Positions 2,663 to 23,287 of a stretch of 64,000 nt of DNA are shown here, in pieces; the first letter of the stretch is position 1; the number at the start of each line of letters is the position of its first letter. The notes under the pieces were generated by a model that was not told the DNA's origin, ran no database searches, and saw only the letters and a program-made list of their open reading frames with translations. Source of the stretch: Nitrospirota bacterium (lineage in GTDB: Bacteria; Nitrospirota; Thermodesulfovibrionia; Thermodesulfovibrionales; UBA9159); NCBI GenBank assembly GCA_963699545.1, contig CAVOUE010000003.1, positions 704,001 through 768,000 on the forward strand, written 5' to 3'. A program made the position numbers and the translations under genes.

Positions 2663-3160
2663 TCAATAGTGCACTGTCACCGTCACGGTATCGGTCAGCA
2701 CTGTGCCTGCGGGAAAGCCTATAAACTGCATAAGCTGTGCGTTTACGGTGTGAGCCTGGTTTGATCCGTTACCTGTATCAGCAAGGCTAGTTCCTCCTAT
2801 ATATGTGCCTGCATAGTCAAAATCTCCCCATTCTACCCCGCCGGCCGGCTGAAAAAGGAAATAAGCAGCCTCTCCCGCAGTCGGGCCAAGCCGTCTTGCC
2901 GATTCGTTGCCATACAGTCCCTTATCGAGCGCGATGTGATAGGGTGTCCCACTCGAACAGTTAACAGTGACATCGCCAGTGGCATTTACAGTGGCCAACC
3001 CCGTGACATCCCCGAAATTCACCGCTGTTGTTGAGACGGTGCAGACTGCAGCGACCGTAGCGCTTACCTGCAGCTGACCTGTTGCTGTACCGGCATAGGT
3101 CACGGCAGAAAAGACAAGGCTGAATGCCAATACACCTAGTACTAATATGATCTTTTTCAT
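2663..3160 (-). CDS. Csu-type (spore coat U domain) pilin 1
   Basis: Signal peptide; VSATV..CTVS...VNFG; VTVNC; C-terminal DTVTVTVHY. Confidence 0.92.
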   Translation of the reverse strand: MKKIILVLGVLAFSLVFSAVTYAGTATGQLQVSATVAAVCTVSTTAVNFGDVTGLATVNATGDVTVNCSSGTPYHIALDKGLYGNESARRLGPTAGEAAYFLFQPAGGVEWGDFDYAGTYIGGTSLADTGNGSNQAHTVNAQLMQFIGFPAGTVLTDTVTVTVHY

Positions 3161-3248
3161 TGCAATCCCCCTTTCTCAGTCGTAAGGGTTCTTAAGTGGA
3201 ATAATCCCCCAAACCTCTCTTTTCTTCCCACCCCCTTCCACACCATAC

Positions 3249-3292
3249 AAAAAGGCCGGGCATGCCGGGATATCTCCTTCGGCAGCTCGGCC
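3249..3292 (-). terminator. Intrinsic terminator overlapping the 3' half of riboswitch P3 (copy 1)
   Basis: GGCCGAGCUGCCG...CGGCAUGCCCGGCC followed by UUUUU; mutually exclusive with the aptamer fold. Confidence 0.75.
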
Positions 3293-3357
3293 ATCTTCTC
3301 TAAGACCCGCCGCTTTCCGTCTCCCGATTACTCGGGATTTGGCTTTGTCGGGATACC
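3270..3357 (-). ncRNA. c-di-GMP-I (GEMM-I) riboswitch, G20 type
   Basis: Minus strand: CGAC-AAAG-CC-AAA-UCCCGA-GUAA-UCGGGA-GACGG-AAAG-CGGC-GGGUCUU-AGAG-AAGAUGGCC-GA-GCUGC-C-GAA. GNRA-capped P2, AAAG junction and C92 equivalent are present. The G20 equivalent is at 3343. Confidence 0.88.
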
Positions 3358-3418
3358 CTGATTACAAGACCATACGTCTGGATAAGGGCATTTGAGCCCG
3401 CTCTCCGCTCCTAAGAAA

Positions 3419-3456
3419 AGCATAGCAAAGCAGTAGGGAATGTCAAGTTTTAACTT
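3419..3456 (-). promoter_or_regulatory. sigma70 promoter for pilin 1 leader, with a near-palindrome abutting -35
   Basis: TTGACA (3446-3441), 16 nt spacer, TGcTATGCT; AAGTTTTAACTT at 3445-3456. Confidence 0.6.
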
Positions 3457-3611
3457 TAGGTTTGCCAGGCAGGAACAAGGGCCTGTTAACTGATCATGAA
3501 GGCAGGAAATGAAAACTCGCGAAAACACCCTAATGGGCCTGTCTCTCAATCTTGTCTTCTTTTTTCAGATGGGCCTGGGCCAAAATCCCCAGGCCCTGAG
3601 AGACGGAAACC

Positions 3612-4115
3612 TCAGTAATGCACCGTCACCGTCACGGTATCGGTCAGCACTGTGCCCGCAGGAATACCTGAAAACGGGTGAAGGTATGCCCTTGCAGTGT
3701 GAGCCTGGTCAGAGCCATTACCCGTATCAGCAATGACACTTCCCCAGAGATATGTACGTGCGTATTCAGCGTCACCCCAATATACATTCTCGCTCGGTTT
3801 TAGGATTTCATAGTCGGCCTGATAACCGCTTCCGGCAACGTTCCTGTAATAACCACCAGGGTAGTGAGTCCCCGCATCGAGAGCAATGTGATAGGATAGT
3901 CCATTCGAACAGTTAACAGTGACGTCGGCAGTGGCATTTACATAGTCCGACACTCCGGTGACATTGCCGAAATTCACCGCTGTTGTTGAGACGGTGCAGG
4001 CGGTGACTACTGTTGCGCTCACCTGCAGCTGACCTGTCACCGTACCGGCATAGGTCGTGGCAGAAAAGACGAGGCTGAATATCAGCACACCCAGCACTAA
4101 TATGATCTTTTTCAT
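3612..4115 (-). CDS. Csu-type pilin 2
   Basis: Paralog of pilin 1 with a divergent central region; ATG at 4115. Confidence 0.92.
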   Translation of the reverse strand: MKKIILVLGVLIFSLVFSATTYAGTVTGQLQVSATVVTACTVSTTAVNFGNVTGVSDYVNATADVTVNCSNGLSYHIALDAGTHYPGGYYRNVAGSGYQADYEILKPSENVYWGDAEYARTYLWGSVIADTGNGSDQAHTARAYLHPFSGIPAGTVLTDTVTVTVHY

Positions 4116-4140
4116 TGCCACCCCCTCAGCTATGGAACCC

Positions 4141-4644
4141 TCAATAGTAAACCGTGACCGTTACGGTATCGGTCAATACGGTCCCTCCAGGAATGCCAGA
4201 AAACGGGGTAGGGTTAAGCTGTGCGTTTACGGTGTGAGGCTGGTTTGACCCGTTACCCGTATCAGCAAGGCTGCTTCCTCCCATATATGTGCCTGCATAG
4301 TCAGCATCTCCCCATTCTACCGAGCCGGTCGGCTTAAAAAGGAAATAATTAACCTCTTCCACAGACGGGCCAAGCCGCCTTGCCGCGTCGTTGCCATACA
4401 GCCCCTTATCGAGCGCGATGTTATAGGGTGTCCCACTCGAACAGTTAACAGTGACATCGCCAGTGGCAGTTACGTAGTCCACTCCGGTGACATTGCCGAA
4501 ATTCACCGCAGTTGTTGAGACGGTGCAGGCGGTGACTACTGTTGCGCTCACCTGCAGTTGACCTGTTACTGAAGCGGCATAGGTCATGGCAGAAAAGACA
4601 AGGCTGAATGCCAATACACCCAGTACTAATATAATCTTTTTCAT
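4141..4644 (-). CDS. Csu-type pilin 3
   Basis: Paralog of pilins 1 and 2; C-terminal DTVTVTVYY. Confidence 0.92.
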   Translation of the reverse strand: MKKIILVLGVLAFSLVFSAMTYAASVTGQLQVSATVVTACTVSTTAVNFGNVTGVDYVTATGDVTVNCSSGTPYNIALDKGLYGNDAARRLGPSVEEVNYFLFKPTGSVEWGDADYAGTYMGGSSLADTGNGSNQPHTVNAQLNPTPFSGIPGGTVLTDTVTVTVYY

Positions 4645-4800
4645 TGCAATCCCCCTTTCTCAGTCGTAAGGGTTCTTAAGTGGAATAATCCCCCAAACCT
4701 CTCTTTCTTCTCACCCCCTTCCACACCAAACAAAAAGGCCGGGCATGCCGGAATATCTCCTTCGGCAGCTCGGCCGTCTTCTCTAAGACCCGCCGCTTTC
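4588..4800. repeat. About 210-bp direct repeat (partner 3104-3317)
   Basis: Near-identical signal-peptide coding sequence, 5' UTR, terminator and riboswitch P3. Confidence 0.95.
4732..4775 (-). terminator. Intrinsic terminator overlapping riboswitch P3 (copy 2)
   Basis: Same hairpin and U5 tract as copy 1. Confidence 0.75.
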
Positions 4801-4838
4801 TGTCCCCTCCTCACGGGGGGTTTGGTTTTATCGGGAGA
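4753..4838 (-). ncRNA. GEMM-I riboswitch, A20 variant (candidate 3'3'-cGAMP sensor, GEMM-Ib-like)
   Basis: Minus strand: CCGAU-AAAA-CC-AAA-CCCCCC-GUGA-GGAGGG-GACAG-AAAG-CGGCGGGUCUUAGAGAAGACGGCCGAGCUGCCGAA. Position 20 equivalent (4826) is A. Two C-A mismatches in P2. Confidence 0.82.
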
Positions 4839-4855
4839 GCCTCATCTCTAGTTTT

Positions 4856-4894
4856 CTTTTATCATGGAAAAGTGCCGGTGTCAAGTTATAACTT
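4856..4894 (-). promoter_or_regulatory. Promoter for pilin 3 leader with perfect palindrome AAGTTATAACTT
   Basis: TTGACA at 4884-4879; palindrome at 4883-4894; weak -10. Confidence 0.5.
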
Positions 4895-5148
4895 TAGTTT
4901 ATACAGCTTCGAGTATGTTTAATAAGAAATGATCTATCCTTTTGATTTCCATTTGATACCTTCAGTCATGCGCAGGATATCCGAGGTGTGTGCATAGACG
5001 ACTAAAACATTCACCTCTGGAACTTGCTATAATCATACATGCTATAGATCGTAATCACCTCATGGTGCGGGGTCATCCGGATGTTCCGATGCTCTGAACA
5101 TCTGCATCTGGCTTTCGGTCCATTCCTGGAAGAGAATTGGATATTCAT

Positions 5149-21291: not shown

Positions 21292-23287
21292 ATGAAGCAG
21301 TCCCGGTTGTATGCTCCTGCCGTTTATTTCTGGTTTTTCCTCACGCTTCTTTTCATGGCCTTCTATTCATATTCATGCTTTTTCAGGCGTGAAAAACGGT
21401 ATCTGCGGAAGGTCGGAGACGGGTATCTCGTGCAGACCCTTAACACCAGGCACAGGGATGAGAGCGCAAAAAGATATCTCCCCGAAGCCCTGTTGTCCTT
21501 CCTGATCTTCACAGCGGGGGTTATCCATGTCTTCGAACTCACCTGGCTTCATGTCCTCTTCATTCCGCTTCTCTCTGCGTTGTCCCTTGTGTACGGATGG
21601 AAGATCATGATCCCCCTGAGTCTGGCGGTGCCGGCGCTTGAGGTCAGGCATTTCCTGTACGGGAACCGCCTGGAAGCAGGATTTTTCAGCGGTTCGGTGG
21701 TTCTGATCGTTGCCATGGTATCGATCGTTGCAACGAGAGTGAGAAACGAACGGAACAGTCTCAAACAGGAGTTCGATACGCTGAAGGAGGAGGTGGTCGA
21801 AATAGATTCCGGCGCCGATGGTGACATTATCAGAGGAGACAATCTCATTTCTCAGCATCTCCTCTCGACAAGAAAAGCGAACGAGGACATAAAGGAAATG
21901 CTGTCCATTGCGAAACACTCGCTCTCGGCAGGGTCGGTAAGCATGTTCGATCTTCGAGGTAACCAGCTCACGTTCCGGTGCTCCACTGACGGATCTCAGG
22001 GTTCCCCTTCGGGTGAGAGGATGCTTGCCTCATGTGTGAGCCGGAAGATGTCGATGATCTTTGATGCAGTGCCTGCAACAGGCGTGGGAGGGTCTGCTCA
22101 CATTCTCACTCCCGTAGCGGATGGGAATTTGATCGTTGGCGTGTTGACCGCATGGAAAGACAAGACCTCAGGAGACGGCCGTTTTGAGATTCAGGCCTTG
22201 GAGATGTTCTCCCGACAGATCGTGAAGATCCTCCACAGCCAGAGGGTGCATGCGCAAATGAGCAAGGAACATGCAGGGCTGAACATCCTTCACAGGGGAA
22301 GCTCGAGTCTCACGACGTCGCTTAAAACAGAAGATATCGGGCAGCGAATAGTGGAGGCAGCCCGTGCGATCGCGCCTTTATCAACAGCGCTTTTCATGCC
22401 GAACGGTCAGCGTTTCGAGCTGGTCTTTGGCGAAGGGTTCAAGGAAGAGTTCGGACTTACCGAAAGGATATTTGACTTCAGTAATACGCGTATCGGGGTG
22501 GTCAGCAGAGGGACGGAGCCCCACTATCTTTCGGACCTGAAAGTCGAGATGACCGATGAGCGTATCGCCGTCTTCCCTTCTGAGTTTAAGGCGGATAACG
22601 AGGGGTCTGTCTTCATGCTTCCCCTTTCATACGAGAGGGAACTCCTTGGGATGCTCGTCCTGTCCTCTCAAAAGAGGAACGCGCTCAGTTCATATCAGAT
22701 CGAGCTGCTGGAGCTCCTCGGGAATCAGGCGTCATCGTCCCTTGCAAATGCGAAATTTCACGCGGAAATAGAGAGGATGGCCATAACCGACGGTCTCACG
22801 GGGCTTTTCAACCACAGGAATTTTCAGGAGAAGCTGACCGAAGAGTTCAACAGGATGCAGCGCTTCGCAAACCCTCTCTCGGTTCTCCTTATTGATATCG
22901 ACTTCTTCAAGAAGATCAATGACACCCACGGACATCCCGCAGGAGACGAGGTGCTTAGGGGGGTGGCAGGTGTCATAAAGGAGACGATACGAACGGTGGA
23001 TATTCCCGCCCGATACGGTGGAGAGGAGTTCGCTGTCGTACTTCCGGGAGACGAACCACGAAGGGGCGCGAAAGATGGCGGAAAGGCTGAGGAATGCGAT
23101 CGCAGGGAAAGCGTTCTCCGTCGACGGGAAGATACTGCAGGTGACGGTGAGTATCGGCGCTGCCACGTCTCCCCACGATACGGGGAACAGGGATGAACTC
23201 ATAGAGAAGGCGGATCAGGCGCTTTACCATGCGAAGAGGAACGGGAGAGACCGGTGCGTGCTATGGAACGATTTACCTCACACGTAA
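21292..23287 (+). CDS. Membrane-anchored GAF-GGDEF diguanylate cyclase (frameshift near 23047)
   Basis: DIDFFKKIND..GH..GD, R..D I-site, RYGGEEF. C-terminus VTVSIG...ADQALY.AK..GR lies in the next frame, after an extra G in CCGGGAG. Confidence 0.88.

Follow-up and report, generated by a model that had tools for sequence, protein, structure and literature searches.

An archaic (Csu/SCPU-type) chaperone-usher pilus operon of a Nitrospirota bacterium is apparently split into two transcription units, each preceded by a GEMM-I aptamer that overlaps an intrinsic terminator, and the two aptamers differ at the specificity base, position 20, where copy 1 has G and copy 2 has A. On balance, although with modest confidence, we favour the reading that this single operon consists of two GEMM-I ON-switch units, of which copy 1 would respond to c-di-GMP and copy 2 to 3',3'-cGAMP. 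This two-messenger interpretation had been put forward in the initial annotation of the locus; it gains from the recurrence of A20 aptamers in the genome, from a candidate Hypr-type cyclase and from the presence of a single chaperone gene, and it loses from a frameshift in that cyclase gene and from the ability of A20 RNAs to bind c-di-GMP.

An Rfam cmscan at the gathering threshold over the whole window, i.e. the 64-kb stretch of DNA that was analysed, returned exactly two matches, both on the minus strand, in agreement with the two complete GEMM-I aptamers previously annotated. Copy 1 (rs1; 3277-3352) matches RF03167 with 66.8 bits (cut-off 59) and RF01051 with 63.1 bits, copy 2 (rs2; 4761-4836) matches RF01051 with 50.5 bits and reaches 52.8 bits on RF03167, under the cut-off of 59, so that both copies exceed the RF01051 gathering cut-off of 35 bits. 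With G20/A47/C92 and a GUAA loop on P2, copy 1 possesses the complete canonical c-di-GMP pocket, while copy 2, with A20/A47/C92 and a GUGA loop on P2, departs from it at position 20 alone and has a GEMM-Ib-type pocket, the mark of which, A20 on a GEMM-I scaffold, is absent from copy 1; the GC in the 3' junction that holds C92 is found in both. In the Rfam alignments position 20, the unpaired base directly 5' of the first P2 base pair (Vc2 position 20), falls on 3343 in copy 1, where the RNA strand (minus) reads G, and on 4826 in copy 2, where it reads A (T on the plus strand), as had been claimed for these two nucleotides. The position numbers combine the alignment to the Rfam consensus with the Vc2 numbering. 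Covariation supports helices P1, P2 and P3: an alignment of 40 distinct homologues, fitted to the model and hence biased in its favour, has 90.6% paired cells, and both partners have changed in 14 of 21 pairs; none of 500 shuffles reached the observed values and slid controls gave at most 52.7% paired cells. Copy 1 shares the pocket bases, the GNRA loop on P2 and the P1/P2/P3 architecture with canonical c-di-GMP-I (Vc2, RF01051), but differs from Vc2 in its predicted anti-termination ON-switch layout and in its top Rfam model, which is the GGC variant, though without the G47 of that variant. The assignment of copy 1 to c-di-GMP-I-GGC (RF03167) was rejected despite the 66.8 bits: in the region of position 47 the RF03167 consensus reads GACGCGAA and the RF01051 consensus GACGCAAA, while the copies read GACGGAAA and GACAGAAA, and neither copy is filed as GGC because position 47 is A, not G, in both. 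To judge by these two consensus lines, the label 'GGC' presumably names positions 20/47/92.

The two leaders are evidently duplicates. From P3 through the terminator and the UTR to the start codon the identity in 30-nt windows amounts to 93-100%, compared with only 60-70% in P2 and the 5' junction, which bears out the earlier description of duplicated leaders with divergence limited to P2 and the specificity junction. Intrinsic terminators lie on the minus strand at 3249-3292 in leader 1 (stem 3254-3292, U5 3249-3253; -26.8 kcal/mol, z -3.9) and at 4732-4775 in leader 2 (stem 4737-4775, U5 4732-4736; -25.0 kcal/mol, z -3.5). In both leaders the terminator hairpin takes up the 3' strands of P3 and P1, and aptamer and terminator are therefore mutually exclusive; since the terminator state is far lower in MFE (-45.7 and -43.1 kcal/mol for leaders 1 and 2) than the bare aptamer (-15.5 and -10.6 kcal/mol), the default is predicted to be OFF, and the predicted folds of both leaders thus agree with the ON-switch layout proposed at the outset. 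Without ligand, the P3/P1 3' strands would pair downstream to form the terminator, which together with U5 would stop transcription, while a ligand-bound aptamer would retain these strands and let the polymerase pass. As judged from sequence and predicted fold, the data support the view of both RNAs as genuine GEMM-I leaders of the ON type that differ at the specificity base.

A -35 box is present in each of the two leaders, suggesting separate promoters. The promoter-like region of leader 1 (3419-3459, minus strand; 10/12 matches in a promoter scan) contains the box shared by the two leaders, a -35 TTGACA at 3441-3446 and, after a 16-nt spacer, TATGCT at 3419-3424. That of leader 2 (4856-4897, minus strand) contains the shared box CTAAAGTTAtAACTTGACA, which aligns with leader 1, a -35 at 4879-4884 and the extended -10-like TGATAAAAG. 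Among the 10 GEMM-I leaders of the genome, 5 (rs2, L002, L003, L007 and L009) have the latter string downstream of a TTGACA-type -35, as a consensus match only.

The genes behind these leaders, which lie on the minus strand, make up the gene set of an archaic chaperone-usher pilus in one cluster, as judged from Pfam matches (four SCPU, one PapD_N, one Usher) and gene order. Behind copy 2 stand two SCPU pilin genes, first pilin A (4141-4644, 167 aa; SCPU E 1.8e-18) and second pilin B (3612-4115, 167 aa; E 7.4e-14; ATG start at 4115, with GTG at 4121 as the alternative), which is 72% identical to pilin A and is directly followed at its 3' end by a hairpin (3571-3596, minus strand; 9-bp G+C stem, no U-tract on the minus strand, fold z -4.6) that may serve to terminate weakly or to stabilise the 3' end. 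The first gene behind copy 1 encodes pilin C (2663-3160, 165 aa; SCPU E 1.9e-19), 80% identical to pilin A, and is followed by a PapD-type periplasmic chaperone (1796-2635; PapD_N E 6.3e-18, start codon uncertain), an outer-membrane usher (1-1946; Usher E 5.4e-13), which extends past the window start and ends at C3:703460, and a fourth SCPU gene (C3:703042-703473, 143 aa; E 5.4e-33). The whole assembly contains a single PapD_N match and four SCPU genes, all at this locus. Because the sole chaperone stands behind the G20 switch and all SCPU genes are located here, the pilins behind the A20 switch must depend on machinery encoded downstream of the G20 switch, and the dependence suggested in the initial annotation is thereby supported at the level of gene content. 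In the proposed mechanism, copy 1 would sense c-di-GMP and release expression of pilin C, the chaperone, the usher and the fourth SCPU subunit, while copy 2, which shares P3, terminator and UTR with copy 1 and carries A20 in a divergent 5' half of the aptamer, would have acquired a response to 3',3'-cGAMP, selective or besides c-di-GMP, that governs pilins A and B; c-di-GMP would then be required for fibre assembly and cGAMP would shift the subunit mix. A search of the 18 other genomes of the family for an orthologous chaperone gave no match at E<=1e-10. The sole related locus that was found, in a Thermodesulfovibrionales MAG, has a 67% identical chaperone and a similar SCPU operon; its 10.7-kb SCPU locus gave no Rfam match at E<=0.01, and two GEMM-I-like matches of that MAG lie away from it.

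The ligand assigned to copy 2 leans on published work, which is cited here and below from the parts of the papers accessible to us. The exchange A20G switches the selectivity of the Geobacter aptamer Gmet_0970 from cGAMP to c-di-GMP, so that position 20 alone flips the preference in that scaffold (PMC6456294), and in Gs1761 the adenine of cGAMP is bound by pairing with A20 (PMC6140456). On the other hand, A20 aptamers bind c-di-GMP via protonated adenine (PMC6140456), and the published ones range from highly cGAMP-selective to bispecific, some natural ones included (PMC6140456, PMC9481103), which confirms the caveat, raised already with the first description of the locus, that A20 need not give selectivity. 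Likewise, the probed A-for-G variant of Desulfobacca acetoxidans, with better cGAMP affinity and a slight loss in c-di-GMP binding, appears nearer to bispecific and retains binding of c-di-GMP (PMC9481103). Both switches might hence in effect sense c-di-GMP in the cell, with copy 2 as a bispecific or low-affinity aptamer, in which case there would be two c-di-GMP thresholds and pilins A and B would be switched on at another c-di-GMP level than the machinery. We hold this to be rather unlikely. It would agree with the occurrence of six G20 aptamers and no A20 aptamer in the same-genus genome G001 and with orthologous leaders that flip between G20 and A20, as in front of a 218-aa gene which has an A20 leader in this genome and a G20 leader in genome G031, the proteins sharing 84% aa identity. 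It accounts less well for the retention of five A20 aptamers in one 3-Mb genome: among the nine good GEMM-I aptamers of the genome, A20 is found in five and G20 in four, and A20 is therefore a maintained class and not a one-off. Also against it, a pattern search across 151 genomes placed 4 of 6 A20-pattern matches in this genome, compared with 4 of 35 G20-pattern matches. In five relatives scanned with a custom model, A20 was found in 6 of the 30 aptamers retrieved, in 4 of the 5 genomes, a count that leaves aside 7 further matches in genome G003. A strict pattern, applied to a sample of 15 other genomes of the family, detected A20 in only 2, which tells against the two-messenger reading.

The source of cGAMP would be a conserved GAF-GGDEF enzyme. 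Its gene is the only one among the 10 GGDEF domains of the genome to combine Ser at the PleD-D344 position with GGDEF, in line with the Ser348/GGDEF rule for Hypr enzymes and with the Goldilocks model, which requires GGDEF, not GGEEF (PMC6456294). Orthologues of about 461 aa with Ser and GGDEF occur in 16 of 19 family genomes, while Asp and GGEEF are found in all 13 paralogue loci displayed. The motif GHLVGSKVL, present in this genome and 15 relatives, aligns with GHLVGSQVL of PDB 6d9m_A, and RYGGDEF occurs in 16 of 16 Ser-type copies; 6d9m_A is also the best PDB match of the cyclase (175 bits versus 121 for the runner-up), with GHLVGS and RYGGDEF common to both. These signatures make the enzyme a candidate Hypr-type (GMP-AMP) GGDEF, the strong conservation of which in the family argues against a pair of c-di-GMP thresholds. 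The search for a cGAMP synthase that had been suggested thus found a family-conserved Ser/GGDEF candidate, but one with a broken frame in this assembly (C5, near 389,380): compared with the intact orthologue from the same genus, the gene has gained one T, a 1-nt frameshift that splits the GAF domain, a point in favour of both switches sensing c-di-GMP, and the gene may be a pseudogene. In 14 of the 15 relatives the reading frame of the orthologue is uninterrupted over 457-483 aa, that of G015 being 243 aa at a short locus. Since the Ser-type cyclase is near-universal in the family and A20 was seen in 2 of 15 genomes, the cyclase does not predict A20 switches. A SMODS/CD-NTase was not found in the genome, which is 87% complete. 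The order of GAF followed by a Hypr-signature GGDEF is that of GacB, a GAF-GGDEF Hypr cyclase of Myxococcus xanthus (bioRxiv 10.1101/600031, accessible part), from which the frameshifted candidate differs in an extra N-terminal region of about 145 aa that has no Pfam match. For HD-GYP phosphodiesterases that act on cGAMP, the same preprint gives the signature Rxx(Q/N).

The integrity of copy 2 bears on the two-messenger reading as well. The two C-A mismatches reported earlier for its P2 are real in the alignments, one at the second P2 base pair and one within P2, and the aptamer fold is 4.9 kcal/mol weaker than that of copy 1 (-10.6 vs -15.5 kcal/mol). Together with the lower RF01051 score (50.5 vs 63.1 bits) and with the internal mismatch, which is the unique non-pair at that position among 39 distinct homologues, this would fit a decaying or non-functional copy 2 that binds no ligand and leaves pilins A and B constitutively terminated or leaky. 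Such decay is improbable, as pocket bases, GNRA loop, P3, P1 and terminator are all intact in copy 2, the ORFs of pilin A and pilin B are both intact, and the CC/AG mismatch is seen again in 6 of the 39 homologues. Moreover, the independent metagenome contig L125 shares the 43-nt 5' half of copy 2 with both C-A mismatches, differs from it at position 20 alone, which is G, and precedes a different gene; the caveat of decay is weakened by this identical recurrence, while the mismatches themselves stand, and both affinity and selectivity are reported to change when lower P2 is mutated (PMC9262584).

An assembly artefact, whether an error in the consensus or a chimeric join of paralogous leaders, could also account for the A at 4826 or for the mosaic 5' half seen in copy 2, given that the genome is a MAG (86.9% complete, 5.1% contamination) with several frame-broken genes and that the leaders are repeats. 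Public sequence has limited reach at this base: run X1 contained 28% of the sampled words, and its near-identical contigs span 4560-4804 and end before 4826, run X3 yielded nothing, and the other sequences over 4756-4836, each with 6 differences, belong to paralogues or relatives. An artefact is nevertheless very improbable, considering that the errors observed are indels or a stop codon, with no demonstrated substitutions, that A20 occurs at four further loci of the genome and that unique sequence flanks copy 2 on both sides in one 903-kb contig. In addition, a short X1 contig matches 4654-4804 with one difference and crosses from the shared 3' part into the start of the divergent part.

Copy 2 is an element of a known kind, GEMM-Ib, and sibling aptamers that differ at position 20 have already been published in Desulfobacca (PMC9481103). 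Like copy 2, the Geobacter GEMM-Ib aptamers (G. metallireducens pilM, Gmet_0970; G. sulfurreducens Gs1761) are GEMM-I scaffolds with A20; the pilM cGAMP ON-switch has the same layout, with a terminator that sequesters the C92 equivalent (PMC9262584), and surface structures are controlled and a Ser-type (Hypr) GGDEF co-occurs, as here (PMC9262584, PMC6456294, PMC6140456). The differences, as far as the accessible text of these papers goes, concern the host (Nitrospirota, Thermodesulfovibrionales, instead of Geobacter, with the copy-2 ligand here predicted from sequence), the cargo (a chaperone-usher SCPU pilus instead of type IV pilus or cytochrome genes) and the cyclase (a GAF-GGDEF candidate instead of Rec-GGDEF). 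The seven-riboswitch cluster of Desulfobacca acetoxidans (Sherlock et al. 2022, PMC9481103) also has near-alike GEMM-I aptamers within a few kb, with ORFs between them, own terminators, one A-for-G variant and predicted ON-switches. In that cluster, by the part of the paper accessible to us, an AdoCbl OFF-switch stands beside each GEMM-I, whereas the 64-kb cmscan here found no AdoCbl element, and each of the two copies here would gate one half of the pilus operon. A term search in the accessible parts of PMC5737381, PMC5473149 and PMC12452182 yielded nothing further on aptamer variants.

Beyond the locus, we tentatively consider a Nitrospirota Hypr-GGDEF/cGAMP regulon independent of that of Geobacter, which as a whole is possible but doubtful. 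In such a regulon the A20 class would have expanded to about half of this genome's GEMM-I leaders, the leaders would move as mobile promoter-aptamer-terminator cassettes whose 5' halves are swapped or point-switched from G20 to A20, and the pilus operon would be split between two messengers, with the assembly unit under c-di-GMP control and the subunit unit under cGAMP control, so that both jointly set the composition of one fibre. If true, cGAMP signalling would be tied to chaperone-usher pili, beyond type IV pili and cytochromes, regulon rewiring through swapped or point-mutated aptamer halves would be exemplified, and the Hypr-GGDEF/GEMM-Ib pathway would be extended to Nitrospirota, for which the literature searched gave no report. 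If copy 2 prefers cGAMP, the locus would be a compact natural experiment: because the leaders diverge in the sensing half and are near-identical in P3, terminator, UTR and ribosome-binding site, any contrast in output could be traced to the choice of ligand. If both copies sense c-di-GMP, they are an ordinary pair of GEMM-I leaders.

The Csu pili of Acinetobacter are encoded in the gene order csuA/B-A-B-C-D-E. In the same order, several SCPU subunits are followed by a PapD-like chaperone, then by an usher and lastly by another SCPU subunit in the operon described here, which is distinguished from Csu by a second promoter-like region and riboswitch between the second and third subunit genes and by its three upstream subunits, which are close paralogues with 72-80% identity.

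Scanning the whole 64-kb window with Rfam at the gathering threshold recovers exactly two matches, both on the minus strand, which are the two GEMM-I aptamers of the initial annotation: copy 1, in the leader of pilin C, chaperone and usher (3277-3352; RF03167, 66.8 bits), and copy 2, in the leader of pilins A and B (4761-4836; RF01051, 50.5 bits). At Vc2 position 20, which immediately precedes the two-pair P2-base helix, the Rfam alignments show G for copy 1 (window 3343) but A for copy 2 (window 4826), again as initially annotated; G20 reads c-di-GMP, A20 is the mark of GEMM-Ib-type riboswitches for 3',3'-cGAMP. The top Rfam model of copy 1 is the 'GGC' variant (RF03167), RF01051 gives it 63.1 bits when the whole genome is searched, and in a permissive scan of 3100-5000 both copies align end to end with the 80-position GGC model. 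Reading the name 'GGC' as we do from a comparison of the two Rfam consensus lines, the GGC type was nevertheless rejected for copy 1, since position 47, A in both copies, is G in the consensus of that model (GACGCGAA; RF01051 counterpart GACGCAAA). As the GC junction containing C92 is also present in both, copy 1 is treated as canonical G20/A47/C92 and copy 2 as A20/A47/C92.

When 117 nt of each leader are folded, the 3' strands of P3 and P1 form a long hairpin followed by UUUUU in both (minus strand, 3254-3292 in leader 1 and 4737-4775 in leader 2), which bears out the proposed overlap of aptamer and terminator. Minimum-energy folds with the terminator reach -45.7 (copy 1) and -43.1 kcal/mol (copy 2), aptamer-alone folds -15.5 and -10.6 kcal/mol; given this large difference termination would be the default and read-through would need bound ligand, both leaders being predicted ON-switches that are OFF by default. 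The cGAMP ON-switch of Geobacter metallireducens pilM has the same layout, its terminator sequestering the C92 equivalent (PMC9262584, excerpt).

On the minus strand, a promoter-like box is followed by copy 2, SCPU pilins A (4644-4141) and B (4115-3612), a G+C hairpin, a second promoter-like site (TTGACA, 16 nt, TATGCT), copy 1, SCPU pilin C (3160-2663), a PapD-type chaperone, 67% identical to that of a 'Thermodesulfovibrionales bacterium' MAG, and the usher, with a fourth SCPU gene (143 aa) and then tol-like genes beyond the window start. The MAG was the one named relative obtained; its order falls within Nitrospirota, which gives a hint at the taxon. Pilin A shares 72% identity with pilin B and 80% with pilin C. 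The only PapD_N match and all four SCPU matches of the assembly (86.9% complete) fall within this locus, so that the products behind copy 2 can be assembled only by the machinery behind copy 1. The hairpin, a perfect 9-bp stem directly 3' of pilin B (3596-3571), was ruled out as a canonical terminator of the pilin transcript, as it has no U-tract; the coding strand has an A-run after the stem, the opposite strand a T-run ahead of it. If transcripts from the upstream promoter pass the hairpin into leader 1, they would meet the terminator of copy 1 too.

With moderate confidence, we consider most likely that the copy 1 unit would be a c-di-GMP-gated assembly unit and the copy 2 unit a subunit unit whose switch would have gained a cGAMP response. 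The initially suggested control of the pilus by two messengers thereby keeps the aptamer pair, the base difference, the single assembly machinery and a Hypr-type gene in its favour, but is weakened by A20 not always being selective and by a broken cyclase frame. Its main rival, two thresholds of c-di-GMP alone, appears rather unlikely to us: A20 RNAs can bind c-di-GMP when the adenine is protonated, and bispecific examples occur in nature (PMC6140456, excerpt), and a 218-aa gene has an A20 leader in the source genome and a G20 leader before its orthologue (84% aa identity) in a relative, yet on Geobacter scaffolds position 20 is the main determinant, A20G alone shifting Gmet_0970 from cGAMP to c-di-GMP selectivity (PMC6456294, excerpt). 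The kind of element is already known, and sibling aptamers have a precedent in print: in the closest published analogue, from Desulfobacca acetoxidans, a stretch of 7 kb holds three GEMM-I aptamers that are almost identical, one with A at position 20; this A variant gained affinity for cGAMP and lost only a little for c-di-GMP (PMC9481103, excerpt). The locus would serve as a clean natural pair in tests of ligand choice, and as a lead towards signalling by cGAMP riboswitches beyond Geobacter and allies; a full-text search of a limited literature set returned no paper joining GEMM-I riboswitches with SCPU chaperone-usher pili, and none substantively joining Hypr GGDEF or cGAMP riboswitches with Thermodesulfovibrio or Nitrospira.

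A candidate cGAMP cyclase is present: one of the ten GGDEF domains of the source genome combines Ser at the PleD-D344 position with GGDEF. The orthologues of this gene code for GAF-GGDEF proteins, in most relatives with an open frame of ~460-480 aa, and Ser + GGDEF is retained in 16/19 family genomes, while all 13 paralogue loci listed have Asp + GGEEF. The best PDB match, 6d9m_A (175 bits; next match 121 bits), is a lysozyme fusion of a 'response receiver sensor diguanylate cyclase, GAF domain-containing' and has GHLVGS and RYGGDEF in common with the candidate. This structure may be the Geobacter GacA domain, although the eLife text gives PDB 5VS9. The combination matches the Goldilocks model, by which Hypr cyclases require Ser348 + GGDEF (PMC6456294, excerpt). 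A Hypr-type candidate is present, but the copy of the source genome (L011, G000:C5:388111-391584) is broken in frame near L011 1270-1280: against the intact 461-aa orthologue of a same-genus genome (88% DNA identity; 97% aa identity in the GGDEF half) it has one extra T, which disrupts the GAF domain and may be an assembly error or mark a real pseudogene. A SMODS-type cyclase was not found in the 86.9% complete assembly. Two other GGDEF domains look disrupted in the assembly: that at window 22780-23254 (G000:C3:726780-727254) is hit by the profile in two parts lying in different frames (positions 1-91 and 89-161), and a third, at C3:360071-360535, contains TAA. Together the three cases suggest either indels introduced by the assembly or that several signalling genes are broken.

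Both leaders are mosaic in build. Between P3 and the start codon, 30-nt windows show 93-100% identity, against only 60-70% in the aptamer 5' half and upstream region, which also have a ~41-nt indel, as the initial annotation of near-identical UTR, terminator and P3 beside divergent P2 and junction had it; the coding regions are 60-100% identical. The P2 of copy 1 (UCCCGA-GUAA-UCGGGA) is found again in a relative (G013), and the 43-nt 5' half of copy 2 recurs letter for letter before a different gene in an independent metagenome contig (L125), the sole difference being the position left open in the search pattern, G in L125. Each 5' half is thus closer to relatives elsewhere than to its twin, so the pair did not arise by gradual divergence after a duplication; either homogenisation took in the 3' part along with the 5' end of the pilin gene, or one sensing half was swapped with that of a different leader. 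The promoter form of copy 2 (TTGACA...TGATAAAAG) occurs in 5/10 GEMM-I leaders of the genome (copy 2, L002, L003, L007 and L009, among the upstream stretches listed), near-identically as (c/a/g)TTGACA-N14-15-TGATAAAAG ~10-20 nt 5' of the aptamer (4856-4884 in leader 2); leader 1 differs by TATGCT and the ~41-nt insert. By their sequences, the GEMM-I leaders of this genome look like portable promoter-aptamer-terminator cassettes.

Copy 2 does carry the two C-A mismatches that had raised the caveat of decay, and the internal P2 mismatch is the sole non-pair at its position (1/39 distinct homologues); the neighbouring pair is broken in 3/39. Decay is nonetheless improbable: the other mismatch (CC/AG, at pair two of the P2-base helix) has non-standard counterparts in 6/39 and occurs with G20 and with A20, the unrelated L125 has the same P2 with neither mismatch repaired, which argues that the helix is maintained, and all pocket bases, GNRA loop, P3, P1 and terminator are intact. 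One of the mismatches sits in lower P2, a region in which mutations are said to alter affinity and selectivity (introduction of PMC9262584, excerpt). Two aptamers of the same-genus genome, in L093 (G001:C16:47326-48914) and L098 (G001:C136:16476-18106), are identical in aligned sequence (100.4 bits each), have G20 with the same CC/AG mismatch, and lie within ~50 nt of the last base of their locus sequences; ~900 nt further downstream in L093, part of a second aptamer appears to match, again ahead of an ORF for a small secreted protein.

Among the nine good GEMM-I aptamers of the source genome, A20 is found in five (copy 2, L002, L004, L006, L009) and G20 in four (copy 1, L003, L005, L007); a tenth match is weak (32 bits) and carries G. 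Across 151 genomes of the order, a strict A20 pattern occurs six times in 3 genomes (4/6 in the source genome), a strict G20 pattern 35 times in 18 (4/35). A covariance model built here and run on five relatives gave A20 in 6 of 30 fetched aptamers: 0/6 in G001, 1/2 in G002, 1/4 in G013, 1/9 in G003 (7 further matches left out) and 3/9 in G009. Both counts make A20 a minority class in the family, enriched in the source genome. The 141-aa gene at L002 has an A20 leader there and in G009 (50% aa identity). An A20-type aptamer (L054 4997-5083, minus strand; L054 is G000:C12:103400-108600) precedes a 141-aa ORF and then a patatin-like phospholipase (Pfam E 1.4e-16); Vibrio cholerae has a cGAMP-activated patatin-like phospholipase (PMC6042076, excerpt), a parallel that may be coincidence. 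Two GEMM-I leaders of the source genome (L056 2629-3498; L059 485-2174) stand before cyclic-nucleotide-binding proteins, one A20 before cNMP_binding+GAF and one G20 before cNMP_binding/CBS/DUF294 nucleotidyltransferase, which hints at cross-talk of cyclic mono- and dinucleotide signalling.
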